Of a stretch of DNA of 64,000 bases, positions 3,036-58,740 are shown piece after piece. The translations under genes were made by a program, and so were the position numbers. Source of the DNA: Mobula hypostoma (lineage: Eukaryota); NCBI RefSeq assembly GCF_963921235.1, contig NC_086108.1, positions 76,758,001 to 76,822,000 of the forward strand, written 5' to 3'. The first letter of the stretch is position 1. Each line of letters starts with the position of its first letter. The notes beneath the pieces were generated by a model. That model was not told the DNA's origin. It searched no databases and was given only the letters and a program-made list of their open reading frames with translations.

Positions 3036-3507
3036 TTAGTTGGTGTTTAAAGCCCAAGATTTGCATTGCTTGCATTCCATATGAAAACAGGAAAATCATG
3101 GACTCTCCCTTAATAAATATTCAGCAACTGATTTGCATTTCTGATGAGAGTGTAACACATTCGCGTGAGAGTGTATACTTGCTGGAGAAGCAAAAAAGAT
3201 TCAAGAACAGAATTCAGTGGGTGGGTAGGAAGGCATCAAATTGAAAAGCATTCTGACACTTGCACCATCCCATTAACAGGAATTTCCAGAGAATAGTTAC
3301 AGCCTTCACTGTAATATGTGAGGCATTCAGCAATAGCATTGATATAGACTGACTCTTTGGTTTTGGATATTGTTTAATAATATGGTTGCCAGGAAGATGA
3401 TAAAAATACCAAATTAAAAATCATAATTTATTTTTACATAGGATAATTTCCCCCTTAAATTGCAGGGTGAAAACTATATTCCCCAAAATGGAAGCGAAAT
3501 ATTGTTG

Positions 3508-3670
3508 GAAAAGAGTACTGTCGAATTTTCGGGCTGAAGGCCCTTCATCAGTGTCTTGGCTGAAACGTCGACTGTAGTCTTTTCCATAGATGCTGCCCGA
3601 CCTGCTGAGTTCCTCCAGCATTTTGTGTGTGTTGCCTGGATTTCCAGCATCTGCAGATTTTCTCTTGTTT
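3508..3670. mobile_element. Penelope-like element terminal fragment, head-to-head inversion with hammerhead remnants
   Basis: Minus arm reads CTGATGAAGGGCCTTCAGCCCGAAAATTCGAC. Plus arm runs from GTCTTGGCTGAAACGTCGACT to the 3' end CAGCATCTGCAGATTTTCTCTTGTTT. TSD GC(G/A)AAATATTGTTG at 3494-3507 and 3671-3684. Confidence 0.8.
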
Positions 3671-4825
3671 GCAAAATATTGTTGTCAGATTGCAAGAAGC
3701 CATCAAATAAGGTGTGATGGTAGCATTTCCTTTGTGTCAGTTTCCCACAGCAATCTGATTAAACTGTGGAATTTACCACAGGGAAATTAGTGAATGCCGC
3801 TTGGGGAGGAAGATGTGTGTAAGTAAAAGGACAAAATGTGAAGAATGCTACAGTTGCTCAAATAATCCAGATAGATCACCTATGACTCTAGTGTGCTACC
3901 TAATGAATATTTTTCACTGAAATAGCAGCTTTCATACTATCTGTTCTAGGAATGGCATCCAGCCAAAAACTCGGTGGTATTTGATAATGATGCTATGGAC
4001 AAAACCTGAGGTGTTTTCATTATTGTTCCTTACTGCTGACTGCTACTGAAGTGCTTACTCCCTTGGCCCACTGTTGAACCTGGTTAAAGGGTAGAGTCAC
4101 CAGATAAAAAACTAGATTGTGGGGTTTTGGTTGTTTCATCATGAAGCAATGAAAAATATGATTTACCCAGGTACCCACTTCAGACATTAAACTGGCATTC
4201 CCAGCATATGTTACCCTCATATGTCTGACAAGACTAACACAGCAAAATGTCTCATTCTGTATTAGAGGTTGGGACATATGGGTACAAGTAGACCAAGTCA
4301 ATCCATATTAACTACGGTTGAGTATTTGCAGGAAACTAGCCCTTCTAGTTCTTTGTGGTGAAGACCAGATTGAAACCCAGCATCTGTAAGTCCCATGACA
4401 TATTTCAGTCTTTACAGCCCATTGTTCCCCCATTGTATAGACTCATCATATTCCTATCCCCATCCCTGACCCCTCAACTCCTCGATGATCCACTAAACTC
4501 CCATTCCAGGTTACTGATGGATCCAACCCCAATTCTCTTGTCCTGCCCAATTGATTTTCCAGGGCTTCCAGTGGAGACCCCAATCTCATCCATACTCCTC
4601 CCTAACTCCATCAAATTACTTCAGGCAGGCCTCTGATACCAGCTTCTCTCATCCCACCCTCAGCCTCAGGGCCTCTATTTTTGTCCAATGCCCATTCATT
4701 TGTGGTGTTATTTGGCAGGAATAACAGAAATTATCTTTGGCAACCATTCCTGTGACCTTTCAGAATTTTGAGGCCATCATGTCAGATGAATTTTAGGGAA
4801 CAGCCATCTCCAAAACACGTTTCCT

Positions 4826-5122
4826 CTATTTACTTTATACTTTATTGTCGTCAAACAATTGATACTAGAGCGTACAATCATCACAGCGATATTTGATTCT
4901 GTTCTTCGTGCTCCCTGGAGTACAAATCGATAGTAAATATTAAAAATTTAAATTATAAGTCATAAATAGAAAATAGAAAAGGGAAAGTAAGGTAGTGCAA
5001 AAAAAACCGAGAGGCAAGTCCGGATATTTGGCGGGTACGGCCCACATCCGGGTCAGGATCCGTCAGCAGTCTTATCACAGTTGGAAAGAAGCTGTTCCCA
5101 AATCTGGCCGTATGAGTCTTCC
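4826..5122 (-). mobile_element. Rex1/Babar-like LINE 3' end
   Basis: Reverse complement of the 25187-25548 element: RT C-terminus, 3' UTR and AATAAAGTATAAAGTA tail. Confidence 0.8.
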
Positions 5123-6772
5123 ATCAATTAACGTGATAGCCCACAGATTTAAGTGCTGATCGCTCTGCCTCGGCATGTTGTGAGGTAGTGACTCTTGTAG
5201 ATTTGAATTAATATGTATATATAAAGTTTTCCAAAGAAGTAGTTGTGCATTGGATTAACAAAAAAATAATTTGTATTAGTATTGCTTCCTGACCAAATGA
5301 CTTGGGCAAATAATTTGATGAATGTTGCTGATTGTTACAGGATACCTGTGAGCTATATTTCTTTATAAGTTCCAATTAGTTTCCACTTCATTGAAGAATT
5401 TATTTTTATTAATTAGATAGATGTAATAGTAATGTGCTGTTTCAGCCCACCTGATAATGAAGAGATTTTCCACTGCTTCCGACACCAGCTGGCTATTAAG
5501 TTGACAAGTCCTCAGCTTCTCAGTGCTGTTTAAAATTGGAATTTGTATTGGCATCTCAGAAAGCAGAGAACAGCTGACTCTAGGAACAGCTATTACATTA
5601 GTTTGGGTTTTCTAAGATGGGCAATCCAGCATTTTAAGATCTGTATTACCGATTAAAACTGAAGTACTAGGGAAACTGATTGTGAAGGTTGTGTTGTTTG
5701 ATGGAAATTGCAAGATTTGTCATAAACGTAGTCTGATGTATAAAGAAATAAGAGGGTCTGAAAATGATATGGTCTTTAGAAACGAAAGGATGCTTATTGA
5801 GTAACTTGCATTATAATGACTCCTTTTTTAAAAAATGAAATAGACATAAAGAAACGCCATTAACTTTCATTCTGGTGTCTTCCATGCTGTTTACAAAATT
5901 GATTAGGCAATGAGTGCTGACAGCATCATAGAGTTATGAAACTTGATGTGTGACAGAGTTAAACTAACATGTACAATTGAAATTGAAGCCGTTCCAATTT
6001 GTTTTCTTGGAAATTCTCTCCCCAGTCATGCCATCCATACACAATACTCAGTGTAAATGCAAGCAATGATATAAAATAGCAGTCATTAATGGTAATTTTT
6101 CAGAACCAGAGTTTTCAAAGGGTGGCTCTAGTGTTAAAGCTGAATTGCAGTATCCAGTATTGAATGCAGTGACAATTGCTGCTAATTCAATTAAAGGAGC
6201 CTGTATGAAACAGTGGCCGGGACCTGGCTGGTGGGAGACAACCTTTCTTAAATGACGTGCAGTTGTACAGCTAATCCTCTCTCTAATAGATGGAGCAGGG
6301 AATTGCTATGCTCTGTAATTGTTGAACGGTATCGGAAAAATAAAACTGTAAACTCAGTCAGGAGTCAGAGGTTTGAAAAGTTTATTGCTCAAGGTCACCT
6401 CCATAAATCATGGTTAGGAGGCAGGCACTCCAGTGATACCCTTTTGCTCAGGCTCTGAAGCATTCAGGTGTGGCTCTGCAGGCAGCTAAAGGAGGTTAAC
6501 CCTCAGAGGCCTGGAGCAGCATTTTCACATGTTTTTAAATTCCTGCCTTCCAAAGGGAGTGAGGTTCCTCCCTACAGATTTATTGTTTCCTAATGCGGTT
6601 CGAAAATAGCTTAATGCAGGTCTCTGAGCTGCAAGGCAAGTGTGGGAGGGTTGGTCATGCACATCTTTAAGCATTCTCCAAAGGGTGTAAATATTACATC
6701 AACGTTAGGGGAAGATGGATGAAAGAGTGAACTAAATATGTTTTTTAAAAGCTCCTGTGATTGGGTGAGAAT

Positions 6773-6815
6773 GGGGAAGTGGGCTTGGGAGAAAGGGTGG
6801 GGGTGGGGGTGGGGG
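6773..6815 (+). other. G-quadruplex-forming G-tract cluster
   Basis: Seven runs of at least 3 G in 43 nt, including GGGTGGGGGTGGGGGTGGGGG. Confidence 0.6.
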
Positions 6816-7279
6816 TGGAAAGTGAGAAAAAATACCATTAAGATGCTTTTACAAAAAGTTATAAGTAGTAAATGAGCTATTCAGTTTATAGCTGGAAAGA
6901 CTGTACTTCCTAGTTAGCACCCAGTTCAACTTGCTAAGCTGGTATTTATTACTGGGTGAGGAGAGAAAACATTTACATTTCTATGCAGTCAAAATATATT
7001 GATAACTATTTTAAAATCTACATTTCTTGAACTTGCTGCATACTTTTACTCTTTCAGCATTTTGTACTTTCCTATATCTTTCTGACAGCTTCAGACAGAA
7101 TTTCCATTTGCCAAATTTTGACTGCTTGCAAAGTTTCAAATGATTGATTGTTCCACAGGTCATAACCTTTTTAAGATAGGTCATTATACCAAAACTTTGC
7201 CAGTGAGAAGTTCTAGGTTTACATATAGTAATCCAGGTAACATGTTTCTACCTTTCCTTCAAGACAACAACTAGTATAT

Positions 7280-7860
7280 AAACACAAGAGATTCTCAGAT
7301 GCTGGAAATCTAGAACAACACACACAAAATGCTGGAGGAACTCAGCAGGTCAGCCAACGTCGATGGAAGTGAATAAGCAGTCAATATTTTGGGCCAAGAC
7401 CCTTTATCAGGATTGGAATGGAAGGGGAAAGATGCTGGAATAAGAATGTGAAGGGGGGGGGTGCAGAAGGAGGACAAGCTGGAAAATGATAGCTGAAACC
7501 AGGTGGAGTGGTGGGAATGAAGTATGAAGCTGGGAGGTGATTGGTGGAAAATGCAAAAGGCTGGAGAAGAAGGAATCTGATAAGAGAGGACAGTGGACCA
7601 TGGGAGAAAGGGGAAGAGGAGGTGATAGGCACGTGAGGAGAAGAGGCAGGAGGCCAGAGTGAGGAACAGAAAATTATTAGGAGTTAGAGAAATCAATGTT
7701 CATGCCATCCAGTTGGAGTCTACCTAGGCGGAATATGTGGTGTTGCCCCTCCAACCTGAGAGTGGCCTCATCCAGGCAGAAGAGGAGGCCACGTGTCAGA
7801 ACAGGAAAGGGGATAGGATTTAAAATGGTCAGCCACTGGCAAATTCAGCCTTTTACAGAT
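7280..7860 (-). mobile_element. Penelope-like element 3' fragment (GIY-YIG C-terminus plus pLTR with decayed hammerhead)
   Basis: Colinear with the left arm at 56710-57338. The hammerhead has decayed to CTGATAAAGGGTCTTGGCCCAAAATATT. Confidence 0.8.
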
Positions 7861-9601: not shown

Positions 9602-9737
9602 TACAAGAGACTGCAGATACTAGAATCTGGAACAATAAACAATCAGCTGCATTAACTCATCAGGTCAAGCAGCATCTGATGGGGGAAAAGAATTGTAAAC
9701 CTTCAGGATGAAACTCTGCATTAAGTCTATTGTTTGT
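9602..9737 (-). mobile_element. Old Penelope-like terminal fragment
   Basis: ACAAGAGACTGCAGATACTAGAATCTGG...CAGGTCAAGCAGCATCTG resembles the PLE 3' terminus. There is a short inverted piece at the right end. Confidence 0.55.
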
Positions 9738-11690: not shown

Positions 11691-12949
11691 CGTACATGTT
11701 TGATTATCAATACTAAGGGGTCAGACATTGAGAAGAAAATCCCTTCAATAAAAGTCAATACTCTATTTAAAGAGTTTAGTTTTATTTCAGAATTTATTCC
11801 ATTTTCAAAAGTGAGAACTATTTGAAGGCAACCAAGACTATTTATTACTCCCCAGGGAATCAATTTGAGGAAGGAAGCTGATTCTTTGCAAAATGAAGCA
11901 CAAAAAATTCTTTAATAAAGAAAAAAAAGGTAAAAAGATACTATTGCAAGGCACTGAATATTTAACGACCGAAGCACTCACAGCGTTCTCCAGTGGTGTA
12001 TAAATGCCTGACTGTTTTTTGTTTAGGCAACAGTCGTTGTAATTGGAAGCCTGAGCTTTGTGCTTTGTACTGTGTTACATTCTCTAATAGAGTGAAAAGA
12101 ACACAACTACAAGCATCTGCTGAATGAAACAGTATCCAGCATGTCTCACAGCATGCAAGCAGAGAAATAACAAATAATATAAGTGCTACCACTTTGTGCC
12201 AAGACCTGGGTACAATAAGAACGAGGCTTCTGTTTCACTTTACAGTGTTTACTGATTCAGCTTGGGTCTCAGTCTTTCTTCTTCACACTCTCTTTCTTAT
12301 CAATCAATAAAGATCAGCTGGATGACATTCCGTACCAGTAAAAATAAGCCACTTAGTAAAAGGACTAATACAATCCTCATGTTATCACCATAGCTAGATT
12401 AATAGTGTTGCTATTATTTGCTTCAATAACTTATCACTACAGCAGGCTGTAAAACAGTATTTAACACTTTGATACAAAGACTCATCGTGGGTTTCATTTT
12501 GCATTGTACCAACAGATCCTTAGGGTAACTTTTTATTTTGAAGAACTGCAAGAACAATTAGAGGAATATTATAACCTTTTATTCAGATGAAGGGGCTATG
12601 CCATAATTGACATTTTTTTAATTTTAAAAAATTATACTTGAATAATATGCTTCAAATTAGGAAATCCCTTCATGGACAGATATGTAACACTTCCATTCAA
12701 AGGTATATTTAATGGTCAGGAAAAAAAGTGAGAGGTTCATAGTGTATCACAAAAACATGACACCTTAGAATTAATTCTCACATCTCCATTTCCTAGTTCC
12801 TAAGAGCTTTTCCTCCATGATATTTTGCACTATCTTACTGAGTGCTCCAAGGTTGTGACTCAAAATAATTCTTTATTACTTTCCCCTTGGAGGGATTGAG
12901 CCTGTGCATTCTGCCAGCCATTTAATTGTTAAACTTATCCACAAGGTTT

Positions 12950-13579
12950 AGATTATGAAGACATGCAGTCCTCTTTTATTGTCATTTAGTAATGCATGCA
13001 TTAAGAAATGATACAATATTTCCTCTGGTGTGCTATCACAAAACACATAAGACTGAAAAAAGACTGAAAAAAAACTAACAAAACCACATAATTATAACAT
13101 ATAGTTACAACAGTGCAACAATACCATAGCTTGATGAAGAAGTCCATGAGCACAGTAAAAGTTCAAAGACTCTCAAATTGTTCACATCTCACGCAAACGG
13201 GAGGAGGAAGAAAATCTCTCCCTGCCATGCCGACCACAGTCCGACTCTGAGTCATCCAAAAGCTTCGAGCCTCCGATCAGCTCTTCAACACCGAGTACTG
13301 AGCGCCATCTCTATCTGAACGATTCGACCTCCATCTCAATCGCCAACAGCAGGCAAAGCCGGGGATTTTGAGGCCTTCCCTCCGAAAGGTTCCCGACTGC
13401 GCAGTAACGACAGCAGCGAACGGCGTTTCAGAAATTTTTCCAGATGTTCCTCTGTGCTTTCACATCTATCTCCATCAAATCAGAATTGTCCACGGCCCCT
13501 ATTTAATGGATACGATATCATTTTTCACCGGAGGGCTGCGCACGCGTGGCACGCTACTTCTCTCTCCTCCCGCCGAGAG
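12950..13579 (-). mobile_element. ~630-bp non-autonomous retroposon, copy 1 of 3
   Basis: Highly similar to 38050-38671 and related to 15016-15696. The minus-strand 3' end is AATAAAAGAGGACTGCATGTCTTCATAATCTAA. Possible TSD A(C/G)AAGGTTT at 12941-12949 and 13580-13588. Confidence 0.85.
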
Positions 13580-15015: not shown

Positions 15016-15696
15016 AGATTAGATTAGATTATGAGGACATACAGTCCTCTTTTATTGTCATTTAGTAATGCATGCGTTAAGAAATGATACAATGTTCCTC
15101 CAGAAAGATATCACAGAAACACAAGACAAACCAAGACTAAAAAAACTGACAAAAACCACATAATTATAACATATAGTTACAACAATGCAAAGCAATACTG
15201 TAATTTGATGAAGAACAGACCATGGACACGGTAAAAAAAAGTCTCAAAATCTCTCGAAGGTCCCATCATCTCACACAGACGGTAGAAGGAAGAGAAACTC
15301 TCTTCCTGCCATGAGCTTCCAGCGCCGCAAACTTGCCGATGCAGCACCCTGGAAGCACCCGACCACAGCTGACTCTTGAGTCCGTCTGAAAACTTCAAGC
15401 CTCCAACCAACCCTCTGACACCAAGCACCATCTCTGCCGAGCGCTTCGACCCTGGCCCCAGCAACAGGCAATAGGCAAAGCCGAGGATCTGGGGCCTTCC
15501 CCCCCAGAGATTCTCGATCGCACAGTAGCAGCGGCAGCAAAGCAGGCATTTCAGAAGTTTCTCCAGATGTTCCTCCGTGCTTCTCACGTCTGTCTCCATC
15601 AAATCAGGATTGTGCATGGTACCTATTTAACAAATACGATATCATTTCAGAGCAGCTGCGCACGCTGTGTCGCGCCGCCATCTTCTTCTCCCCTCT
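15016..15696 (-). mobile_element. ~680-bp non-autonomous retroposon, copy 2 (sister subfamily)
   Basis: Same 3' end and (TCTAA)n tail as 12950-13579. The 5' end reads AGAGGGGAGAAGAAGATGGCGGCG. Inserted into the CR1 relic. Confidence 0.85.
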
Positions 15697-17821: not shown

Positions 17822-18601
17822 CTAAACCTTTAACAAGCTTCTATAGATATGTAGTGGAGAGTATATTGACTGCAAACAAGAGAAAATCTGCATTTTTTCA
17901 TCTTTTTTCCAGTACTGATGAGGGGGTCTCAGCCCAAAACATTGACTGTACTCTTTTCCATAGATGCTGAGTTCCTCCAGAATTTTGAGTATATTGACTG
18001 GTTGCATCATGACCTTGTGTGGAAACACTAATCCCCTTGTATGGAAAAGCCTAAAGTAGTGGATGTGGCCCAATCCATCACGGGTAAAGCCCTCCTTACC
18101 AATGAGCACATCTACACGGAGTGATGTTGCAGGAAAGTAGCATCCATCATCAAGGACCCCCACCATCCAGGCCATGTTTTTTTCTTGCTGCTGCCGTCAG
18201 GCAGAACATACAGGGGCCTCAGGACCCACACTGTCAGGTTCAAGAATAGTTATTACCCCTCAACCATCAGGCTCTTGAATCAGAAGAGATAACTTCACTC
18301 ACCCCATCACTGAAGTGTTCCCATAATCAACGAGCTCACTTTCAAGGAACCTTCATTTCATGTTCTTGATATTTATTGCTTATTTATTTCTTCTTCTTAT
18401 TTTTTCGTCTGTTTGTTTTTGTATTTGTGCAGTTTGTTGTGTTTTTGGGCATTGGTTCTTTGTCCTTCCTGATGGGTGTGGTCTTTCATTGATTCTATTG
18501 TGTTTCTTGTATTTACTGTGAATGCCTGCAAGAAAATGATTCTCAGGCGTGTATATGGTGACATATATGCACTTTGATAATAATTTACTTTTGAACTTTG
18601 A
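17822..18601 (+). mobile_element. Rex1/Babar-like LINE 3' fragment
   Basis: Encodes FYRYVVESILTGCI...ASIIKDPHHPGHVFF, the Rex1 RT C-terminal region. Tail AATAATTTACTTTTGAACTTTGA. Confidence 0.85.
17873..17986. mobile_element. Penelope-like fragment with inversion and perfect 14-bp TSD
   Basis: TSD GAGTATATTGACTG at 17859-17872 and 17987-18000. A 20-nt antisense 3' terminus is joined to a sense arm containing CTGATGAGGGGGTCTCAGCCCAAAAC. Confidence 0.85.
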
Positions 18602-20229
18602 TCTTTTCTGCCTAAAATAACTTGGATTTAACAGTGCAGGGCATAATTTACAAATTCACTAAACTTGGAGTTATAGAGAATTGTGAAGAGGAAGGTGATA
18701 GACTTCAAGCAGATATATAGACAGGCTGGTAGAAAAGGCAGATGCCTGGCTTGATGAAATTTAATGCTGATGTAAATGTATGGTTCATTAAAAGTGGCAG
18801 GCCGGGTTGAGAAATGGGTTGAAAAAAAAACATGAAGGAATTCTCAGTTTTGTAAACAAAGGTTCAGAGCCTAAGAGCAAGGAAGTAATGATGAATCCTT
18901 ACCTAGCCACAGCTGCAGTTTTATGTCTAATTCTGGTCATCACACTTTATAAAAATGACCAGATTTAGACATAATTCTAATTATGTTTAATTCTGGAAAG
19001 GATTATCATGGTAATTCTGAGGGTGAGTAACAGTCTTATGCGGATAGGTTGGTGAAGCTAAGTTATTCCCTTAGAAATAGAGAGGGTTGAGAGAAGATAA
19101 TCACGACAGTGTGAACAGAGTAACTAGAGCAAAAATATACCATTTGGGGAAAGGGTCAGGAACTAAGGTAAGATAACAAAAAAGGACATGACGAAAAATA
19201 TTGTCTTGAGTAGTTATCACCTGTCAAGTGTAGACAAGAAAACAGAATCTGATTATGCAGGGTGGACTGTGGAACTAGCTGGTGCAAATTAGACAACAGC
19301 AATGTAACCATTCTGTGATTCTGTGAATAGCAAGGCAAGAGAAAAGAGTTTTCACAGAGTTCAAAGTAAATTCCAGTGTCAAAGTACATGTATGTCACCA
19401 TATACAACCCTGAGATTCACTTTCTTGTTGGCATACCTTATAAATTGATGGAATATTAACCATAATAGAATCAATGAAAGACCGCCCAACTGGGGTACGC
19501 AACCAGGGTGCAGAAGGCAGTAAACTGTGCAAATGCAAAAAGGAGAGACAATAATAATAAATAAGCAATAATATCGAGAACATGAAGAGAAGAGTCCTTA
19601 AAAGTGAGTCCATTAGTTGTGGGAACAGTTCAATGACGGGTCCAGTTATCCCCTTTGGGTCAAGAGCCTAATGATTGAGAGGTAGTAATTGTTCTTGAAC
19701 CTGGTGGTGTGAGTCCTGAGGCTCCTGATGGCAGTGCTGGGGAAAATGCACATTCTGGTGGTGAGTGTCCTTGATGATGGATGCTGCTTTCCTGTGACAG
19801 TGTTTCATGTAGATGTGCTCAGTGGTTGGGAGGGCTTTACCCATGATGGACTGAACCGTATCCACTACCTTTTGTAGGATTTTCCTTTCAAGGGTATTGA
19901 GCTTCCATACCAGGCTGTGATGCAGCCAGTCAGTATACTCTCCACCACACATCTAAAGAAATTTGTGGAAGTTTTACAAACCATCATGGCTGATCCCAGA
20001 TCCCACTCAACCCATACTCCTGTCTTTTCGCCATAACCTTTGATGCCCTAACTAATCAGGAAACTATCAATTTTCACTTTACAGTTGTCTGTGGCACAGC
20101 ATTCCACAGATTCACTATTCTCTGGCTAAAATAGTTCCTCCTTACCTCTGTTCTAAAGGGTCACCCCTTAATTTCTTCTCTGGGTCATATCTATCCTGTG
20201 TCTTGTGAACTATTTCTAGAAACCTCAGT

Positions 20230-24879: not shown

Positions 24880-25180
24880 GGTAATGCAATTTCCAATTAA
24901 CTGCCCTTGAACTGGCTAATTTGGTGGGCATTTTAAAGTCAATACAAGTGGGTCTTGATTCACATATTGGTCACACTGGCTATGGATAGTAGTTATCTTT
25001 CCAAAGTGGACATTAGTGAATTAGACGGAGTTTTACAATATCATTTCATGTTCAGCATTTTGAGTATTAGATTTTAATTCCAGATATATTTACTTTGATT
25101 TGAATTCCTCAGCTGTTGTGGGGCGATTCAAACAAACCTCTACATTGATACTGTAAGGCACTAATCTAATAAGGTAACCA
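24880..25180 (-). mobile_element. Old tRNA-derived SINE
   Basis: GGACATTAGTGAA...TTCCAGAT...TTGAATTCCTCAGCTGTTGTGGGGCGATTCAAAC, with a B-box-like element on the minus strand, resembles an elasmobranch SINE. Recognised from memory only. Confidence 0.45.
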
Positions 25181-25186
25181 TACTTC

Positions 25187-25548
25187 CATTGACCCATCCA
25201 GCCAACACACTCTTTGTCCCTCTTCCCTCCGGGAGAAAGCTCAGGAGCTTGAAGACTCGTACGGCCAGATCTGGGAACAGCTTCCCTCCAACTGTGATAA
25301 GACTGCTGAACGGATCCTGACCCGGATCTGGGTCGTACCCTCCAAATATCCGATCCTGCCTCTCGGTTTTTTTGCACTACCTTACTTTACATTTTTTTAT
25401 TTTCTGTTTATGATTTATAATTTAAATTTTATATACTTACTATCTTTTTTACTATTTTTAATATTTTTAATATTTAATATTTGTAAACCAGGGAGTGGAA
25501 AGCACAGAATCAAATATCGCTGTGATGATTGTACTTTCTAGTATCAAG
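25187..25548 (+). mobile_element. Rex1/Babar-like LINE 3' fragment
   Basis: Translates as TLFVPLPSGRKLRSLKTRTARSGNSFPPTVIRLLNGS*. The 3' UTR is shared with 4826-5122. Confidence 0.85.
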
Positions 25549-27220
25549 TGATTCTTCAGTTTCACTGCTATCAACACATGATAAGACTGAGCTGTGATGC
25601 CTTGATGGTTGAATATCTTGCTTACTCTTACTATCCAGGCTCAAGAACAGTTGCCACATGGGCTAGACACCAGGAGCAAGCCAAAGGTCGTGCTGACATA
25701 CATCTTGAAAACATCAACACTTAAGACAGGAAGGAAAAAAAAATCAATTAGGAAATAAAAATTCAACCTGCTCTCAAATCAGTTAAACGGATTTCATATT
25801 AGTTTGAAATATCTCAAATCTTAGTTCTAAATATCTCAAAGCCGTGTTTTTCCTCTAGCTTTATTAGCCCTCTTGTAGTATATGAAGACACAGAAAAATA
25901 AAGACATAGGAGGGCAGGGAGTTATAAGTTAATAAAACAGTCCCTATGTTCAGATGACATAAACCATATTTGATTCACAATCTTTGTCCAGATGTCATCA
26001 AACCCCCGAAACTGTTGCAGCACCTTTAATTGTGCCTGAGTCTATTAGTGTTTTAATACTGAATGTAAAGAACTGATTTTGAATCAAAGATCCACTGAAG
26101 TTTTAGTAACTCACTCATATTATTTGCCCTTTTTTAACATCAGTCTGATTATATGTACTTACAAGTAAGTGACTACTTCAGCAATTGTACAATTTGACAA
26201 ATATATTGAGTGGGTAGTGTTTTCTCAGAGAAATACTCAGGCATTTATATTAAAACAAATGTCATGGTATTTCTTTCTGACAAGAGAAAAACCTAATCTC
26301 TATTGGATATCTATTTCTCTGCTCTCTTTTTTTGTAGTGGAAAAACATCTACCAGATGTTTTATGATCAAAGAGAGGGGAAAAAAGTCTGAAAACACCAT
26401 CACTTTCCCTGACCCTTGTCCTCTATCCCATAAGCCCACACAGTTGAGCGCCAAGTCTTTTAATCAATCTCAGCCGAGAATGATAAGTGTCTCTTATCTC
26501 CATTGTCATTGTAATAGCTTCCAACATTTTAAGATTGAAATACGAAGCCAGGCAAACCTCAGTTATCAGCAGATGGGACTACAGCACATCTAACGGCACT
26601 GGCAATAAAGTCAAGTATAAATTGCTCTGAGACTTGGGTCTCCAGCTGCACAGGCAGCCTGAAAATCCTATCTCTTTCTTGCTTCTGATTTTCTCCACTG
26701 CTCACTCTCCACTGCCAAGCTGGGTCTCAGGGCTTCTGTAACTGCCCCTAATAACTTTGCTGTTCATGTATTCTGGTTGTATTTACAAACCTGAGGACGT
26801 CTTGTATACTGCCTGAGGGATATATATATATCCTTTCAGTATCTCTGCAAAGAGACACCCTCGCTGAAATCTGTCATCGGATGGTTTTATTAATTTTTAT
26901 TTCCTTCTGACTTTGACAGCTGCTCTGTTAATACCCTGGCAAGTGTGAATTGTGTCACTGCAGCAGAGAGCTTAGGTTTTAAATGGTAAGAGCAGGGAAG
27001 GTGACAACACTATCAACAGTGAGAGCCCTAAAGCAGCTGAAAAGCAAACAAGACTTGGGGTTGGGTGGAAGAAAGAGAAATTTTATTTGAAGTAAATATG
27101 CAGACCAGGGGAACCAATCTCACAAGAAGTATAAGATACATTTTTATTCAATTAAATAAATGTACGTAAGTACAAGTTGATATCATTATACTCTCGGAAA
27201 GAGAGCAGAAATACGGTGAC

Positions 27221-27262
27221 AAACAACAGGAGTTCTGCAGATGCTGGCCTGCTGTGTTCACG
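27221..27262. mobile_element. 42-bp Penelope-like micro-insertion with inversion
   Basis: Antisense terminus AAACAACAGGAGTTCTGCAGATGCTGG joined to sense CCTGCTGTGTTCAC. TSD AGAAATAC(G/A)GTG(A/G)C at 27207-27220 and 27263-27276. Confidence 0.7.
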
Positions 27263-28399
27263 AGAAATACAGTGGCTCAACATTTTGCAAGGTATGAAGG
27301 ATTGAGTACGTTATGTATAATTCTTCATTTTGAACCAAACTGGTGACAGACATCAACATTATCCTTCTCGATTTTTTTTTGATAATTAGTTCATACATCT
27401 GGCAGATTGTACTTTGCTCACATTTTTACTTCTTCTGTATGTCTTTTTTAATTAATATGTCTATAAGAGGAAAACATGGAGACAAATCGCACATTGATTA
27501 GTCAGTATTTCTGTAGAACTGCGTGGTATTTGGAAATAATTTGGCAGAGTCCCAGGGTTTAGTTTTGGTTAGAGGCATTGGACACCTTAGATAGGGGCAG
27601 AGGCTTTAAACACTGCGTCGAGCAATAGGAAGAAGTTTTGGATTGTGGTTTTCACCTTTCTTAGGGGTGGTTTTGTGTCTGTGTAGGTGGACTTTGGATT
27701 TTATGGACTTCAAGGAATGGCTTCTAGAGATACTGACTTTTCTTGATTTCCAGGACGAGTCCATATATTATCCTCTCTAACAAGCATGTGTCCCACACAT
27801 GCATCATTCACACGTTCCTCTGTAGTGTGAGTATGAATCACTCTGTAGCCAGCAGTGACAGTTGTGTGAGATGGACGTTTTAAATTGCCACCAATCATTA
27901 AACAAGACGTTGCTAGAAAATTGCATTAATTTCTATAAGAAGTAATTAAAGCACTGAATAGAAAACATTCAAGGGATATTGAATAGACATTTGAAAAAAG
28001 AGACAAGATAATGGGAAGAGTGCAAGAATAAGCAATAAGTTTTGGACTGCTCTAAAATCAACGAACCCTAAGTTTGATTGGCTGATCGTTTCCTTAAATG
28101 CAGTAAATGTCTCTTTTTTTTCTTCCTCTCATATGATAGATGCTATTCTCTTTGAGTTCAGGCTGAGCAGAATTTTGTTCAATTGTATGAATTGTGCATG
28201 AAACTCATAGAAACTATACAGACTGTGAGACTTAATCATTGTTATTTTATTTTACCAAAGTGGAAGTGTGTCTGTCCTGTTCCATATTGCTTCATTCCAC
28301 TTTCATTATTCTGTTTAACATTCTTTGAATGTTTTCTACTCTTTGCTTTTGACACTGATTATAACAATATATTACATGACCTCAAAACAACTAAAGAAG

Positions 28400-29010: not shown

Positions 29011-29513
29011 TGTATGGAATGAACACAAAGCAGTCTGACAGACACATGAAGATTTTGAAAGATGAAATATTTATTGCCATGAAGGAACACAAGTAAATGC
29101 ATTGACGTGAATAAGACATGTTCAGAAATTGATGAACAAGATATCTACATCGCACATTATTACAGATGTCATATTATTTGTCATTCCTATCAGCTAGCTG
29201 CTGGTTTGAAATCACAGGCCCGCCCCATACATTTACCTAACACTAATGAGACTTATTGATTGGAAGTATGGGATTTGTAAAGGTTACAGGGTTAAAGTAC
29301 ATAAAACTGCTGTTCCTATCGCAGCAGATTTTTTGCAATATTGGGTTGGATTGGTCAGTAGGGAGATATTAATAGGTTCCAAGCAGGAAGACGTAGACAA
29401 AGCACAGTGTGATTTCAACAGTTAATAGTTCGCCTACCCTGCAGGACCACAGTTTCCTTGGTATACAAGGTTTTTACTACAGGGTGACATGCAATTAAAT
29501 ACTATTTTGCTAA

Positions 29514-35960: not shown

Positions 35961-35967
35961 AGTATCA

Positions 35968-37790: not shown

Positions 37791-40700
37791 GCTAGATAGA
37801 TACTTTATTGATCCCAAAGAAAATTACAGTGTCACAGTAGCATTACAAGTGCACAAATATACAAATATTGGAAGAGAAGTAAAAAAAATAAAAAATAACT
37901 TACCTCAACCAGTCTAATAGGAGGGGGTCATCACTCCTCTGCCTATAGATTGACTCATTATAGAGCCTAATGGCCAAGGGTAAGAATAACTTCATATAGC
38001 GTACTTTGGAACTGTGCAATTGTCTTAGTCTATTACTAAAAGTTATTATTAGATTATGAAGACACGCAGTCCTCTTTTATTGTCATTTAGTAATGCATGC
38101 ATTAAGAAATGATACAATATTTCCTCCGGTGTGATATCACAAAACACAGGACAGACCAAGACTGAAAAAAAACTGACAAAACCACATAATTATAACATAT
38201 AGTTACAACAGTACAACAATACCATAGCTTGGTGAAGAAGTCCATGAGCACAGTAAAAGTTCAAAGTCTCTCAAATGTCCCACATCTCACGCAGACGGGA
38301 GAAGGAAGAAAAACTCTCCCTGCCATGCTCGACCACAATCTGTCTTTGAGTCATCCGAAAACTTTGAGCCTCCAAGTCAGCTCTCCGACACCGAGTACTG
38401 AGCGCCATCTCTGTCTGATCGATTCGACCTCAACCTCGGTCGCCAACAGCGGGCAAAGCCGGGGATTTTGAGACCTTTCCTCCGGAAGATTCCCGACCGC
38501 GCAGTAACGACAGCAGCGAACGAGTATTTCAGAAATTTCTCCAGATGTTCCTCTGTGCTTTCACGTCCATCTCCATCAAATCAGAATTGTCCACGGCCCC
38601 TATTTAACGGATACGATATCATTTTTCACCGGAGGGCTGCGCACGTGCGGCGTGCTTCTCTCTCTCCTCCCACTCCTCTGTTCAGCTAAGGTGGCATGCA
38701 GATGGTGAGAAACATTGTCCAGAATTGCCAGACTTTTCCATAGGGTCCTTTGTTCTATCACAGCCTCCAGTGTGTCTAGTTTGATTTCTTTAACAGAACC
38801 TTCCTTTCTAATCAGTTATTGAACCTATTGGCATCATCTGTGTTGATGCCATTGCCCCAGCACACCACCACATAGAAGATTGTACTGGTGACAACCGACT
38901 GCTAGAATATGTGAAGGAGAGGCCTGCATACTCCAAAGGACCTCAGTCTCCTCAGGAAGTAGGGATGACTACTTGTTCACAGCTTCTGTGTTGGTGCTCC
39001 ACTCAAGTCTGTCGTCCAGGTGCACCCCCAGGTACTTGTAGGTCCTCACCACATCCACGTCCTCACCATCAATAGTAACAGGGATCAATGCAAGCTCAGT
39101 CTTCCTAGAGTCCATCACCATCTCCTTTGTCCTTAATGACGTTGAGCTGCAGATAATTCAGCTTACACCATTTGATGAAGTCCTCCACCGGTCCCCTGTA
39201 TTCATCCTCCTGTCCTCCCTTTATACACCCAACTATTGCTGAGTCATCAGAAAATTTCTGCAGATGACGTGACTCAGTGTTGTATCTAAAGGCCAAGGTA
39301 TACAGGGTAAACAGAAGGGAGTCAATACAGTCCCATGTGGGGCCCCAGTGCTGTGTATAGCCACTTCTGACATACAGCTCTTAAGCCGCACTAACTGTGG
39401 TCTGCCAGTCAGGTAGTTCTTTATCCAGGATATGATGGAAGTGCCAACCTGCATTGAACAGAGCTCCTCCCCCAGAAAACAGGGATGTATTGTATTGAAG
39501 ACACTTGAGAAATCAAAACCATAATCGTCACAGTGCTGCCCTGCTTATCCAAATGGGAGTAAGCTCTTTTCAGCACGTAGATGACATCATTGCCGACTCC
39601 ATTGTGCTCCTGGTAGGCAAACTGCAGGGGATCGAGGGCTGATCTGACCAGGGGTCAGGTGTGAACCAGGACCAGTCCCTCTAGGGTCTTCATGATGTGT
39701 GAGGTCAGGGCCACTGGACGGTAGTCACTCAAGACCTTTGGTTGGCCCTTCTTGGGTACTGGGACCAGACTTGATGTTTTCCATACAGTCAGGACACTTT
39801 CCAGGCTGAGACTCAGACTGAACTGCACTGGAGAACTCCACACAGCTGCTCAGCACACTCCTTCAGGACCTTGGGGTTCACACCATCCAGTCCCAATGCT
39901 TTGCTGTGTCTGGGTTTCCCCAGAGCCTTTCTCCGCTGCTCAGTAGTGAAGGTGAGTCCATGATGACTGGGGAGTTGGTGGAAGGTGGGGGCAGGGGGAG
40001 GTGAAGATCAGTACGATAGCAAGTTGGTATGTGGAGGTGTGGACGATAGGTGCAGGGCAAGGAAGGGATGTAGACAGCGGTAGCCTGTGTTGCTCATCCA
40101 CGTATTGAACTGGAGGGGGTAGGGGGAGGCATTGGTACTGAGCGAGCATTGGGTGCCTCAGCACCTGGACTGGTGTGCTGAGGTGGGTGTGAACAGGAGG
40201 GCAATTGTCAAACCTATTGAGGAATTGGGTTAACTCATTAGCCCATTCACGGCTGCACTCTGAGGCTCTGCAGCTGGGCTGATTGAAGCCAGTGATGGTC
40301 TTCATGCCTCCCCACACCTCCCGTGTGCTGCTCTGCCCGAGCTTGTCCCCTAGCCCTCTCCTGTATTCCTCTTTAGCCTCCTTGATCTTCTCCTTTAGCT
40401 CCCTCTACACGTTTCAATTCTTCCATCTCCTGATCTAAAGGCTCTCTTGTTGTGGTTGAGAAGAGCCTTTAGATCACTAGTGTCCCATGGTTTGTTGTTA
40501 GGGAAGCAGCGAACAGTCCGTTGATGGTATTACAGTGTCTACACAGAAGTTGATGTAGCCAGTGATGTAATCAGTAAGTCCGTTAATGTCCTCCCCAAGT
40601 GGTTCACAAAGCACATTCCAGTCAGTAGCCTCAAAGCAACCCTTCGAGGCCTTGATGGCCTCTGGAGACCATTTCCTTACTGTCTTGGTGGTAGTTCGCT

Positions 40701-40965: not shown

Positions 40966-41928
40966 CAGGTCATTACTACACTTGTGCCTCCAGGAGCTTG
41001 CGGTGCACAGTGGTTTCGTTACTATTTTCCACATCACAGCAGTGTCTATGCCTAAAAAATCACTTGTTTGCCTGTAAGCTGCTTTTATAGTGAAAGAGCA
41101 ATATAAATGCAACTATTTTGTCATATAGGTATTGCCTATATTTCTTGGTTTAATGCAGGGCACAGCTACCACTATTATCACTTTCTAATGATCCATTAAA
41201 AAAACATTCGGCTGAGGACTACGCACTGAAACCTACTGGTAAACTCCCACTGAACTTAATGAGGTTGTTGTAGGAATTAAATTAACAAGATTAGGCACTG
41301 TTGCCTGCATTTAGAGGTCATTAGTTAAAACATTGCAGTATAAACATCACATTGACCCTGGTAATTAATCTTACCACGCAAGCATGAGAGAGAATAAAAG
41401 GCAAAAATGGCCTCTCTTGTAAAAAAAACTCAACCTTCTCTCATGTTGCACTCTTATTGATTCCTTCTTTGCTTGTCTTTTTTTAAAAAGACAATACAAC
41501 TGTTTATACAATGTTTAAAGGAAACCTTTTGAACTATGAATTAATTATTTTAATGAATCAAAACCAGCTAATGGTGTGGTGATTCTGCGGGTATACGTGC
41601 AGCAACGTGTGCAAGCTGTGCATGTATGTCTTAGTTACGTGCTTGTGTCATCTGCCATGCTTTCAGCAGATAACTTGCATTAGTTTGCTGGGGCACCTCA
41701 AATGCCGTGTGTGCTGGAAACAGTCCAAAAAAGTCACTGTGACTGCTTTCAGGATATAAGGCATGCTTCGGGCAACCAGCATATTTCTTTTATTATTAAA
41801 GGCAAATCATGTTTAACTTATTTGATAAAGTTTTTTTGATGTGATAATTGCAAGGTAAATGAGGGACATTTGCTTGATGTGGTGTATATGCATTTTCAAA
41901 CGACTTGTGATGAAGTGCTCCGTTGTAG

Positions 41929-42319
41929 CCTCTGATCTGACGGTATTTACATCGATTTCTCTGATTTGCATTAATTTCTCCCCCTCCCCCTTCTTTTTCC
42001 ATTCCCCATTCTGGCTCCCCTTAACCCTTCTCTTCTTCTCACCCGCCCTCTGGTGCCCGTCATCCTTCCCTTTCTTCCATGGTCCACTTACCACTTCCAC
42101 CCCATCACCTTCCAGCTTCTCATGTCATCCATCTACTTCCCCCCTCACCTTGTTTCACCTATCACTTGAGAGTTTCCACCCATTGCCCTCTCCCAGGATT
42201 TTTATTCTCGTTTCTTCCCACTTCCTTTCCAGTCTTGATGAAGAGTCTCAGCCCAAAACACTGATTGTTTATTCCTCTCCATAGATGGATAGCTGAGTTT
42301 CCCTAGCATTTTGAGTGTG
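41929..42319 (+). mobile_element. Penelope-like fragment, single arm, 14-bp TSD
   Basis: Colinear with 57430-57906. Decayed hammerhead TTGATGAAGAGTCTCAGCCCAAAAC. TSD GTGCT(C/A)C(G/A)TTGTAG at 41915-41928 and 42320-42333. Confidence 0.75.
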
Positions 42320-42339
42320 GTGCTACATTGTAGACTTCT

Positions 42340-56473: not shown

Positions 56474-56580
56474 GAACACACAAAACGCTGGAGGAACTCC
56501 ATGGAGGGAAATAAGCAGTCGATGTTTTGGATGGAGACCCTTCATCAGGACTGGAAGGAAAGAGGGAAGATAGCCAATAC
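56474..56580 (-). mobile_element. Short Penelope-like pLTR fragment
   Basis: Minus strand CAGTCCTGATGAAGGGTCTCCATCCAAAACATCGACTG, a hammerhead with GAAA lost. Confidence 0.7.
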
Positions 56581-56806
56581 AAAAATCAACCTCATTTGCA
56601 AAATCAAAGGATATGAAAAAAAGAATGACTTGCATTTATTCAGTATCACTGATGTCCCTATCAGGACATTCCACAGTGTCTTACAACTAAGGGTATACTC
56701 TTGAACTTCAAACATGAGGAAATCTGCAGATGCTGGAAATTCAAGCTACACACACAAAATGCTGGTGGAACACAGCAGGCCAGACAGCATCCATAGCAAG
56801 AAGCAC

Positions 56807-56842
56807 AGTCAACGTTTCGGGCCGAGACCCTTCATCAGGACT
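56807..56842 (-). ncRNA. Minimal type I hammerhead ribozyme, core apparently intact
   Basis: AGUC-CUGAUGA-A-GGGU(CUCG)GCCC-GAAAC-GUU^GACU: stem I AGUC/GACU, stem II, GAAA, palindromic ACGU stem III and a GUU cleavage triplet. Confidence 0.75.
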
Positions 56843-57811
56843 AACTGAAAGAAGAGATAATAAGAGATTTGAAAGTGGGAGGGGGAGGGGGAGATCCGAA
56901 ATGATAGGAGAAGACAGGAGGGGAAGGGATAGAGCTAAGAGCTGGAAAGTTGATTGGCAAAAGGGATACAAGGCTGGAGAAGGGAGAGGATCATGGGACA
57001 GGAGGCCTAGGGAGAAAGAAATGGGGAGGGGAGCGCCAGATGAAGATGGAGAGCAGGCAAGGAGTTATTGTGAGAGGGACAGAGAGAGAAAAAAAGGGGG
57101 ATAAATAAATAAATAAATAAATAAATGAGGGATGGGGTAAGAATGGGAGGAGGGGCATTAACGGAAGCTAGAGAAGTCAATGTTCATGCCATCAGGTTGG
57201 AGGCTACCCAGACGGAATATAAGGTGTTGTTTCTCCAACCTGAGTGTGACTTCATCTTTGCAGTAGAGGAGGCCATGGATAGACATATCAGAATAGGAAT
57301 GGGACGAGGAATTAAAATGTGTGGCCACTGGGAGATCCTATTCTGATATGTCTATCCACAGCCTCCTCTACCGTCAAGATGAAGCCACACTCAGGTTGGA
57401 GGGACAACACCTTATATTCCGTCTGGGTAGCCTCCAACCTGATGGCATGAACATTGACTTCTCTAACTTCCATTAATGACCCCCTCCCATTCTTACCCCA
57501 TCCCTCATTTATTTATTTATTTCTCTCTCTCTCTCTCTCCCCCCCCTCCCCTCTTTCTCTTTTTTCTCTCTCCGTCCCTCTCACAATAACTCCTTGCCTG
57601 CTGTCCATTTTCCTCTGGTGCTCCCCTCCCCATTTCTTTCTCCCTAGGCCTCCCGTCCCATGATCCTCTCCCTTCTCTAGCCTTGTATCCCTTTTGCCAA
57701 TCAACTTTCCAGCTCTTAGCTCCATCCCTCCCCCTCCTGTCTTCTCCTATCATTTTGGATCTCCCCCTCATCCTCCCACATTCAAATCTCTTACTATCTC
57801 TTCTTTCAGTT

Positions 57812-57847
57812 AGTGCTGATGAAGGGTCTCAGCCCGAAACAGCAACT
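57812..57847 (+). ncRNA. Hammerhead ribozyme copy, predicted inactive
   Basis: AGUG-CUGAUGA-AGGGUCUCAGCCC-GAAAC-AGC-AACU. The NUH triplet is lost and stem I is weakened. Confidence 0.6.
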
Positions 57848-58740
57848 GTGCTTCTTGCTATGGATGTTGTCTGGCCTGTTGCGTTCCACCAGCATTTTGT
57901 GTGCGCCTCTTGAACTTCGGTCACTGTTGAAATGCAGCAATGCAGCAGCCAGATTGTGCAGAGCAAGTTCGCACAACAATCGTACAATAAAAGACTGATG
58001 AAATATTTTTAGTCAAATCTAAAGGAGTATGAAATTAAGACTAAATCCTTCCCTTCTCTTAGTAGAGGCACCTTTTGTCATTTCTGTCTTCATTTGAAAG
58101 GGTAGATAAGGCCTTGGTTTAACATTTCATCTTCAAGTTAACATCACTGACAGTGCAGAACAACATCAGTGTCACCAAATTGTCATTGGAGTGTCCAGCC
58201 TAGACTGTAGTCTCAAGGCTATAGAGCATTAACCTGAAAATACAGCCTTATGACCAAGAGGCACGAGTTTAACCAAATGAATCACAGCTGGCATAACTTA
58301 TAAAGGTAACATGGGTAAACTGTGATAAATTAAGGAGGAAATTAGTCACCATTTCATTTAAGAGAAACGTGTTTTGTTCTTATATTTAATTTTGAGAAAT
58401 CGTTGAATGTTTGAAATGACTCTTATGATTCAGAGCCTAAGACCCGAATTTTCCTGAGTGTGGCCTGCCTGCAGCACTCACCGCATGTCTCCTATAGGTC
58501 TGAATTTGCGTCTTTTAGTTCTGTATAGTTGAACTCTATGTCTGAGATCAACATTACACATGAGCAGCAAGGCACTGAGCAATGGCTAAGGCTGCAGCAA
58601 GATAATCAGGTGACATGGGCAGGTCAGGTCAAAATTGCTCTGGACACCTTTATAGTGAAGGCAAAACTCTGACCTCAGCTTTGCCATCTTTTAAAATAGT
58701 CATGGATAATTAATGTTCCTGAAAGTCCCTCTCCTTAAGA

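Follow-up and report, generated by a model that had tools for sequence, protein, structure and literature searches.

The closest described systems are the EN+ Penelope-like retroelements (PLEs), whose complex insertions show partial tandems, an inverted 5'-truncated copy, a tail of 30-40 bp at one end only, a hammerhead in the pseudo-LTR (pLTR) and palindromic inner junctions (Craig et al. 2021, PMC8557442; Arkhipova et al. 2013, PMC3846280). In the passages of these reports that deal with insertion, the target duplication is described as variable and explained by cleavage of the second strand after TPRT, self-priming is invoked for the inversions, and the rotifer examples have duplications of 8-10 bp; how the tail and the inverted arms are formed is named as an open question (PMC8557442). 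The full-length Poseidon protein of Anolis carolinensis cuts both strands in vitro and extends them (Frangieh et al. 2024, PMC11167929); its reverse transcription begins at two neighbouring internal sites, which define the tail, a dimer is predicted, and hammerhead cleavage can be dispensed with. This is the one in vitro study of a full-length PLE protein, and it leaves the formation of the tail and the inverted arms open. The insertions described here share the general plan of the EN+ PLEs and differ in having a duplication of 13-14 bp with a symmetric motif, and in that a fold-back origin of the inversion is excluded in 33/63 cases.

The insertions in the window (the whole stretch of 64,000 nucleotides that was analysed) are copies of a Neptune-type PLE. 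The unit is 3512 bp long, with an open frame of 1043 residues containing RT, a CX4CX2C linker and GIY-YIG + CCHH. In the single ORF at 4162-7290 of locus L133, RVT_1 (residues 534-697, E 3e-5) is followed by a C-terminal GIY-YIG (946-1020, E 1e-3), as in EN+ PLEs; both matches lie under the Pfam cut-off, in the expected order, and DKG and YIDD motifs are readable. The CCHH motif, as defined for EN+ PLEs (PMC8557442), is present as VIY-CVRCSRC-GLLYIG (two cysteines between GIY and YIG) with histidines downstream, and the Neptune-type linker CKRNKCYTC is located upstream of the nuclease, unlike in Poseidon. A zinc-finger-like CX2-5CxxC linker between RT and nuclease is reported for Neptune and Nematis and as absent in Penelope/Poseidon (PMC8557442); the assignment to Neptune, made by this linker motif, is probable, with Nematis as a possible alternative. 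No solved structure was found that matches the ORF. Partial tandems (pLTRs) are present at loci L133 and L221, as in EN+ PLEs.

The pLTR contains, by sequence pattern, a minimal type I hammerhead. This core pattern, which marks a putative ribozyme, occurs 493 times in 1.99 Mb of loci (stem I fully paired in 339) and is intact once within the window; an Rfam search returned no hammerhead match in the window arm or in L133. The 3' ends of the family are bimodal, with peaks at 0 and about -35 from the tail end, and pile up at the tail end itself (146 at 0, 37 at -1). Genome-wide, more than 100,000 first-look candidates were counted, and the copies of the window alone are a mixture of at least three subfamilies. 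The family sample of ~2 Mb, mostly from one contig (C1), was selected by similarity rather than as an unbiased census; it includes 195 young insertions. A bias of Neptune toward microsatellite targets has been hypothesised (PMC8557442); a dinucleotide run was found in only 1/128 young targets, and such targeting was rejected for this family.

All six insertions with target duplications listed in the preliminary description were re-found, with lengths of 14, 14, 14, 14, 14 and 12 bp and 0-2 mismatches; five are head-to-head with both 3' ends outward, and the one at 41929-42319 is a single arm. The first, between duplications at 3494-3507 and 3671-3684 (14 bp, 1 mismatch), joins a short inverted arm of the hammerhead region (3508-3552, minus strand, 3' end outward, inner edge approximate), which stops ~86 nt before the tail end, to its head-to-head partner, a tail-ended arm of an older subfamily (3550-3670, plus strand). 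The exact 14-bp duplication at 17859-17872 and 17987-18000 (0 mismatches) encloses a tail-only arm of 20 bp (17873-17892, minus strand) and a shorter-ended arm (17893-17986, plus strand, inner edge approximate) that stops ~46 nt before the tail end. A 42-bp head-to-head insertion of the young subfamily (27221-27262) has its tail arm at 27221-27247 (minus strand) and an arm at 27244-27262 (plus strand) stopping ~56 nt before the tail end, with duplications at 27207-27220 and 27263-27276 (14 bp, 2 mismatches). The head-to-head insertion at 29514-29657, with a tail arm at 29514-29632 (minus strand) and a short arm at ~29630-29657 (plus strand) ending just past the hammerhead, is flanked by 29500-29513 and 29658-29671 (14 bp, 1 mismatch). 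The single arm without tail (41929-42319, plus strand) stops ~39 nt before the tail end, between duplications at 41915-41928 and 42320-42333 (14 bp, 2 mismatches). The largest insertion, between exactly paired 12-bp duplications at 56698-56709 and 57907-57918, consists of a tail-ended arm (56710-57345, minus strand) with the intact minimal hammerhead core (start 56842, minus strand), and a shorter-ended arm (57336-57906, plus strand) that stops ~38 nt before the tail end and encodes the last 44 ORF residues at 57342-57476.

Two further copies, missing from the preliminary description, have no detected duplication: a single tail-ended copy (7280-7839, minus strand) and a single copy without tail (56476-56573, minus strand). 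A degenerate seventh case had been proposed at 9602-9737; this is a decayed tail-ended copy (minus strand) whose proposed duplication scores at background level (best 8/10) and could not be confirmed. The claim that one arm always keeps the true terminus also fails: the tail is not the true RNA end, and the single arm at 41929 is tail-less. When the duplications are compared with the next bases of the element, agreement is 10/14 at 17987, 9/12 at 57907, 6/14 at 42320, and 5/14 both at 27263 and at the 3508 end. At 29658 it is 10/14 by eye and 3/14 by the automatic comparison, in which the anchor slipped on an indel.

Tabulated across the family, the signature holds beyond these six copies. Flank-swap controls matched the duplication score in 1/300 trials, compared with 63/70 young tail+core insertions (core denoting the usual shorter end). 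The duplication measures 13-15 bp in 53/63 young two-armed insertions, deconvolved to 13 (0.46) and 14 (0.40) bp, and the older set has its mode at 14 (15/38); the stagger of ~14 nt claimed earlier is therefore supported as 13-14 nt. Just outside both duplication ends lies a symmetric AA-nnn-A motif, with A at 117/180 and 114/180 of the positions -8, -7 and -3 on the two sides (0.29 in flanks). The same positions are A in 72/111 cases for single-arm copies and 64/108 for older copies. Single tail arms have shorter duplications (P 4e-6), with the far AA still at the 14-nt distance.

The RTE clade, whose nuclease is of the AP type, offers a partial likeness. Two features resembling the pattern here are reported for it: a T (A) stretch lying roughly one turn of the helix away from the nick, and a connection of the RNA 3' sequence with the first base of the duplication (Nishiyama and Ohshima 2018, PMC6007223); nuclease and clade differ, and the abstract of that study mentions neither a two-sided motif nor head-to-head arms.

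The empty-site check supports true duplication: one orthologous site and 51/60 paralogous sites hold one target copy, not two. The orthologous site is in a contig of organism C, where window position 27205 is joined gaplessly to 27262, so that 56 bases (42 + 14) are skipped. The 17.9-kb target is single in 8/10 spanning paralogues of the host repeat, one of which is in the window itself, near 19927-19940 (by matches). For the 56.7-kb insertion, none of the paralogues searched spans the target. The 29.5-kb insertion is apparently present in the relatives examined, whose contigs run into it, and in these relatives the site of the 17.9-kb insertion coincides with contig ends.

The two arms of an insertion are paired strictly. 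Among 80 young two-armed insertions, 76 have one tail-ended and one shorter-ended arm (70 tail+core, 6 tail+other), the others being core+core (2) and core+other (2); tail+tail occurs in 0/80, against 18 expected under independence (P about 1e-9), and in 0/62 older insertions. Single arms make up 110/195 young copies (68 tail-only, 42 core-only). The head-to-head layout with a shorter second arm is the published one-sided 30-40-bp tail, and the tail offset and second RT start site match those published (PMC8557442, PMC11167929). Of 86 clean shorter-arm junctions, 76 fall within a window of 9 nt that lies 33-41 nt ahead of the tail end. The earlier statement that the second arm stops internally where the target resembles the element is thus right as to the similarity and wrong in letting the arm stop wherever homology occurs. 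Tail ends run 2-8 bases into the sequence of the following tandem unit in 21/101 cases. Junctions are templated through the last three bases at 74/88 core and 92/104 tail ends, and inner junctions overlap in 36/63 insertions, by at least 3 bases in 25.

The arms of one insertion are discordant at 56/927 diagnostic sites (6%), compared with 42% between insertions, and share private variants at 2.2 vs 0.27 per kb. Two templates had been suggested as one option; unrelated ones are disfavoured by these shared subfamily alleles and by the fact that both arms never carry a tail. In 13/63 two-arm insertions, against 2.7 expected, the starts of the arms lie no more than 35 nt apart, and in most of these the tail arm contains the core arm. 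The start registers of the two arms are uncorrelated within insertions (rho 0.07, n=51), which gives no support to a rigid spacing along a single RNA. Folding of the initiation regions is not more stable than that of shuffles (z 0.02 and -0.29), and we therefore claim no RNA structure for the two start windows. Hammerhead cleavage was rejected as the source of the template 5' end: among 44 short arms outside DNA-targeted loci, only one starts within 3 nt of the cleavage site at -102, while 13 start at -126 to -142. This absence of a pile-up of 5' ends at the cleavage site may be set beside the dispensable hammerhead cleavage of anole Poseidon. Gene conversion between inverted arms is a possible cause of raised arm concordance.

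The targets resemble the next ~8 bases of the element at both outer ends (0/2000 permutations). Over positions 1-7, core ends show 3.41 matches against 2.18 expected (n=86) and tail ends 3.42 against 2.12 (n=101), each with 0/2000 permutations, which bears out the pairing above shuffled controls that had been proposed. The continuation beyond the tail end is matched as well (376 matches vs 260 expected, 0/2000). When only exact duplications of 13-14 bp are taken, the matches at positions 2-7 come to 2.79 vs 1.77 and 2.97 vs 1.85, and those of the wrong-end control to 1.56 and 1.74; the register used is the best-matching one in 57/76 and 62/95 cases. A common target consensus was rejected as the cause, as permutation of targets keeps the consensus and the signal still exceeds the permutations, and so was chance extension of the duplication, which cannot affect positions 2-7 or the wrong-end control, which still differ. 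Template G stands opposite target A in 100/179 mismatches (0.37 expected), an excess that would fit G.T wobble between a sense template and the bottom strand; the other wobble (template U, target C) shows no enrichment. The pairing is weak, with an exact run of 0 in 28/86 core and 38/101 tail junctions, and in the oldest, window-type subfamily alone it is not significant (n=15, 2.47 vs 1.98, 107/2000). The two-ended statistics and the 13-14-nt duplications suggest that both target ends act as primers, as was proposed. The further proposal of one primer at the RNA 3' end appears wrong, because tail ends reach up to 8 bases past the tail and resemble the target no less than the shorter ends do, so that both starts are internal.

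In L1 retrotransposons the first priming takes place at the poly(A) and the second primer lands variably upstream, with little overlap of the arms; in L1 twin priming, as Ostertag and Kazazian reportedly described it in 2001, the arms do not copy the same template stretch twice. As in L1-type twin priming, both target ends appear to prime here, with 3' ends outward and a single duplication, but poly(A) is absent, each of the two starts is internal, and the arms overlap widely in element coordinates, as the preliminary description had held. Pairing of primer and RNA and joining of cDNAs by short homology, both proposed here, are also part of the L1 process (PMC7617806); L1 duplications measure 7-20 nt, whereas the present family has two fixed windows 36 nt apart and largely overlapping arms in 80/195 young copies.

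To the directly observed narrow duplication, AA-nnn-A motif, two-end similarity, strict pairing of tail with shorter ends, and shared source of the arms, we add a reading that rests on genomic footprints and that we regard as probable: a staggered double cut of 13-14 nt, after which each overhang would prime reverse transcription by imperfect pairing, in windows ~36 nt apart. In a target with two-fold symmetry, the element's nuclease probably cuts each strand once, at positions offset by 13-14 nt, and each 3' overhang would pair with the element RNA at an internal start window, with one primer using the core window (-41 to -33) and the other the tail window (-4 to +5). The two-strand cleavage and extension and the two internal starts of the anole protein in vitro (PMC11167929) speak in favour of this reading. 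A dimer, suggested by the symmetric footprint and by the published anole prediction, would make both nicks and hold one RNA across two RT sites; within this reading a single RNA molecule is somewhat more probable than two sibling RNAs. Both cDNAs would end early, and their 3' ends would be joined with the help of added bases or short homology. Priming by one overhang alone would leave a single arm, and the unused overhang would often be trimmed, giving a shorter duplication.

A sequential, L1-like route is judged unlikely. In it one strand is nicked and primes; the same nuclease then cuts the other strand at a spacing fixed by its own geometry, and this end primes a further cDNA, which would amount to twin priming at a constant position without any dimer. 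Such a route would also place the same half-site at both nicks, it agrees with the stated view of sequential PLE cleavage (PMC8557442), with the top-strand nicks of human L1 at +7, +11 and +19 during first-strand synthesis (PMC7617806) and with the single arms in 110/195 young copies, yet it predicts variable duplications, contrary to the 13-15 bp in 53/63 two-armed copies. Moreover, each window primes alone (68 tail-only, 42 core-only), which makes neither obligatory as the first, and one template stretch is represented in both arms, which sets them apart from L1 twin priming. Fold-back or self-priming, proposed from palindromic junctions (PMC3846280), would have the tail-primed cDNA copy itself to about -36 and anneal to the other overhang. 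The shared variants of the arms and the near-equal arm starts in 13/63 insertions, several at palindromes, would be explained in this way, and the same core-end pairing and wobble signal would result. In 33/63 insertions, however, the 5' reach of the core arm exceeds that of the tail arm by >35 nt, so the core arm cannot have been copied from it; these 33 do not differ from the others in core window or duplication length (pairing 4.0 vs 4.6 of 8). With a core end lacking a detected tail arm in 42/195 young insertions and two RT start sites seen in vitro (PMC11167929), fold-back is excluded as a general route, and as the explanation of the family it is quite improbable.

Very improbable is the earlier version, in which one overhang primes unpaired at the RNA 3' end and the other internally wherever homologous, possibly on two templates. 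The sharp pile-up of 3' ends at the tail end and the 6/80 second arms that stop far inside (e.g., 3508 and 29657) speak for it; it is opposed by the 21/101 tail ends that pass into the next unit with matching targets, by the confinement of core ends to the 9-nt window and by the alleles common to both arms. The least probable of these alternatives is capture of free cDNAs by host double-strand-break repair via microhomology, without target priming: short homologies do occur at outer and inner junctions (36/63 overlap, 25 by at least 3 bases), but the fixed 13-14-bp duplication with its symmetric motif indicates a programmed staggered cut, and most core and tail junctions are templated through the final three bases.

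The staggered double cut with two paired primers may be extended, tentatively, to PLEs as a whole: these would integrate by their own concerted two-fold symmetric reaction, in which a dimer acts on AA-nnn-A half-sites, leaves 13-14-nt 3' overhangs and holds one RNA across both RT sites, while each overhang selects its start through imperfect pairing, as in telomerase, within either of two windows spaced by 36 nt. If true, one geometry accounts for the tail, the inverted pLTR, the trimmed single-arm copies and the absence of tail+tail insertions. The head-to-head layout and the one-sided tail are already published; the quantitative figures are new, and we found no paper giving stagger, motif or pairing statistics. 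A young, very abundant family here supplies a quantitative footprint, made up of the offset of the cuts, the half-site, the pairing of the primers and the asymmetry of the arms. This footprint goes against two claims in the literature, that duplications vary through late cleavage of the second strand and that initiation is free of homology, and it can guide the design of DNA and RNA substrates for experiments. With the duplication and the motif, copies of the family can also be annotated to exact boundaries. As telomerase and the RTs of PLEs are sister groups (PMC8557442), the primer-template pairing step, if true, would be a trait common to PLEs and telomerase.

A complete 3512-bp unit of the element, with a 1043-residue open frame, is located at the sampled locus L133, downstream of a truncated copy; the end of the ORF is also encoded by the right arm of the 56.7-kb insertion in the window, and a first look genome-wide gave 137,341 candidates. 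The frame contains an RT and a GIY-YIG domain, in that order, with a CCHH motif and a CX4CX2C linker. These features fit the definitions set out in the excerpted text of PMC8557442, so the element is classified, from domains and motifs, as an EN+ Penelope-like element (PLE) of Neptune type. The N-terminal domain of the frame (L133:4162-7290) shows no match in Pfam; it has 70 relatives, in which H, F, C, L, P and G positions are conserved and which mostly start at an MPTPKK methionine (residue 28 in the frame), so that the start codon likely lies just after the 30-40-bp tail carried by one type of element 3' end. The element carries a minimal hammerhead core some 100-135 nt ahead of the tail end, and the window holds at least three subfamilies differing in age. 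In another copy (L031:4922-6544), an in-frame internal duplication of ~80 codons is found in the RT domain, and its 541-residue frame stays open.

All six insertions of the preliminary description are present in the window, at 3508-3670, 17873-17986, 27221-27262, 29514-29657, 41929-42319 and 56710-57906, with duplications of 14, 14, 14, 14, 14 and 12 bp (1, 0, 2, 1, 2 and 0 mismatches, respectively). Five show the head-to-head layout described for them, and 41929-42319 is a single arm without the tail. The degenerate seventh case suggested at 9602-9737 scores only at background, and for two single-arm copies (7280-7839 and 56476-56573) no duplication was found. The 27221-27262 insertion is present in the related organism B; in organism C, one contig connects window positions 27205 and 27262 without a gap and so skips 42 + 14 bases. 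In total, 189 sites were rebuilt as empty, 60 of which fall in other repeats with spanning paralogues; a single target copy (±1 base) is the commonest paralogue length in 51 of these 60, the 17.9-kb site included. Since both orthologous and paralogous empty sites show a single target copy, the flanking repeats are confirmed as true target duplications. Contigs with the tail of the young subfamily (window 26774-27707) are numerous in organism B, and organisms C, E and F have almost none, which indicates that this subfamily expanded after those lineages split. Another repeat at ~25190-25550 (window 24906-25839, 4853-5121) is covered by contigs far more deeply in organism B than in C, where a contig appears to skip it, and is possibly a second lineage-specific young family. 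An unrelated ~620-bp repeat is present in three copies (12948-13571, 15023-15675 and 38048-38671), two of them 91% identical.

The sample comprised about 2.0 Mb in 320 loci, picked by similarity to the nuclease end or the terminus and mostly on contig C1, together with whatever element copies fell in their flanks; given this choice of loci, the class frequencies apply to the sample and are not genome-wide estimates. Non-redundant insertions with both flanks numbered 371 in the first 250 loci plus the window, 195 of them with an identity of 92% or more to L133; when all loci were scanned again with an older reference, 265 older insertions were recovered. All end positions are counted from the last base of the tail (coordinate 0). 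The element 3' ends are bimodal in BLAST, at 0 (tail ends) and about -27 to -39 (core ends). With exact anchoring, 76/86 clean core junctions lie at -41 to -33 and 95/101 clean tail junctions at -4 to +5 (2/88 and 3/104, respectively, were dropped as unclean). The offset of the short arm is the one already published for the tail: excerpts of PMC8557442 and PMC3846280 describe inverted arrangements with a 30-40-bp tail on one end, and those of PMC11167929, an in vitro study of Poseidon of Anolis carolinensis, map the tail to two internal RT start sites, so that layout, tail and start sites are already in print. The 80 young two-armed insertions divide into 70 tail+core, 6 tail+other, 2 core+core and 2 core+other. 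The tail+tail class is absent from these 80 (18 expected from independent arms) and from 62 older two-armed insertions. Either window can prime alone, as seen in 68 tail-only and 42 core-only insertions. The 5' ends of short arms (loci L031-L250) cluster between -126 and -142, at the hammerhead's front edge and away from its cleavage site (-102), which may mark a transcript start or RT stalling at a hairpin.

A duplication score of at least 10 was obtained for 63/70 young tail+core insertions (1/300 flank swaps), and the length is narrow, 13-15 bp in 53/63; after allowing for chance extension, the weights are 0.12, 0.46 and 0.40 for 12, 13 and 14 bp. This differs from the PLEs in the excerpted text of PMC8557442, where the duplication is variable and set by second-strand cleavage after target-primed reverse transcription. 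Older tail+core insertions show a duplication in 38/44 cases, with a mode of 14 (7/200 swaps). The same half-site, with A at -8, -7 and -3, is found outside both ends (117/180 positions on the core side and 114/180 on the tail side, vs 0.29 further out), and it follows each end in 13-bp and 14-bp duplications alike. It is also seen in single-arm copies (tail-only 72/111, core-only 36/69) and on the core side of older copies (64/108), being weaker on their other side (51/108). Tail-only insertions have shorter duplications of 10-16 bp (37/68 scored, P 4e-6). In 19 of them, with 12 bp or less, the far AA still keeps the 14-nt offset, and for this reason the shortening is read as trimming of the unused overhang.

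Pairing was assessed by comparing the far, purely genomic duplication copy with the bases next in the element. At positions 1-7, core ends have 3.41 matches and tail ends 3.42, where permuted targets give 2.18 (sd 0.13) and 2.12 (sd 0.11), respectively; 0/2000 permutations reach either value, and the excess fades out by about position 9. The similarity between target and element reported earlier for the second arm therefore holds at the core end, and its restriction to that arm does not, as the tail end matches too. In 39 exact 13-14-bp cases (positions 2-7) core ends give 2.79 (1.77 expected) and tail ends 2.97 (1.85 expected), and the wrong-end controls reach 1.56 and 1.74. The register used is the best-matching of its window in 57/76 core and 62/95 tail ends, and the match of real targets slightly exceeds what adjacent DNA could offer (4.49 vs 4.12; 4.67 vs 4.10); the signal is thus mostly register choice, with a little site choice. 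Template G stands opposite target A in 100/179 mismatches (0.37 expected), the excess that G.T wobble would give, and the other three transitions, U.G wobble included, show no enrichment among mismatches. The pairing is loose, the first base lacking an exact match in 28/86 core and 38/101 tail ends. Older core ends also pair (2.81 vs 1.97, n=36), and in the oldest, window-type subfamily alone pairing falls short of significance (n=15, 107/2000). For the anole protein in vitro, PMC11167929 reports an absence of homology; since one target was used there, such loose, register-choosing pairing may have been hidden.

The tail had been taken for the true terminus of the element. In 21/101 tail ends, arms over 3 kb among them, the arm runs 2-8 bases past the tail; the template therefore extends beyond that point, which makes the tail an internal start. 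Arms of 1-3.3 kb primed past the tail are found at L206, L161, L247, L175 and other loci. Element sequence thus flanks the tail on either side in their template, which calls for a tandem transcript of several units, a circular RNA (as proposed in the excerpted PMC4209133) or a template jump.

The two arms of an insertion are closely matched, which points to one source for both. In the 57/76 insertions with at least 6 scorable diagnostic sites (6/31 variable sites being left out as noisy), arms are discordant at 56/927 sites, vs 42% between insertions, and private variants common to both arms occur at 2.2 per kb vs 0.27. Four insertions with arms differing at 4-6 subfamily sites (L248:2393-7302, in one block; L218:2414-5603; L220; L117) may have had two source RNAs or gone through template switching or gene conversion. 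For 33 of the 63 simple two-arm insertions, the core arm extends >35 nt beyond the tail arm, which rules out for them the simple fold-back proposed in the Discussion of PMC3846280; in another 17 it is the tail arm that extends further. The other 13 have arm starts no more than 35 nt apart (2.7 expected), in most of them with the core arm contained in the tail arm; fold-back may have produced these, as may two cDNAs that both ran off the same RNA end. Long two-arm insertions show such starts in 5/45 (1.8 expected, 162/5000). Start registers of the two arms within one insertion are not correlated. The 63 inner junctions comprise 36 overlapping, 8 blunt and 19 with extra bases. Stutters of 30-50 bases or short repeated element pieces are seen at the inner junctions of L129:4428-7680, L167, L235, L066 and L038, and internal inversions inside a single duplication are also seen.

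Both element 3' ends point outward within the duplication, a geometry that requires a 3' overhang on either side of the target. Together with the small spread in duplication length, the half-site outside both ends, the target-element pairing seen at each end and the strict association of a tail arm with a core arm, this favors as the simplest, and probable, reading a 13-14-nt double cut that would leave two 3' overhangs, each of them priming reverse transcription within one window of a shared source RNA, with the two cDNA ends then joined. A sequential route with one nuclease would leave nearly the same footprint, and we regard it as unlikely. Alongside the double cut, a dimer holding one RNA would best account for the absent tail+tail class; for the anole protein, a dimer is predicted and both strands are extended in the excerpted PMC11167929. 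Earlier PLE literature or repeat-database notes may give duplication lengths; in the published full text searched, no fixed PLE stagger, two-sided target motif, primer-pairing statistics or tail+core exclusivity was found.
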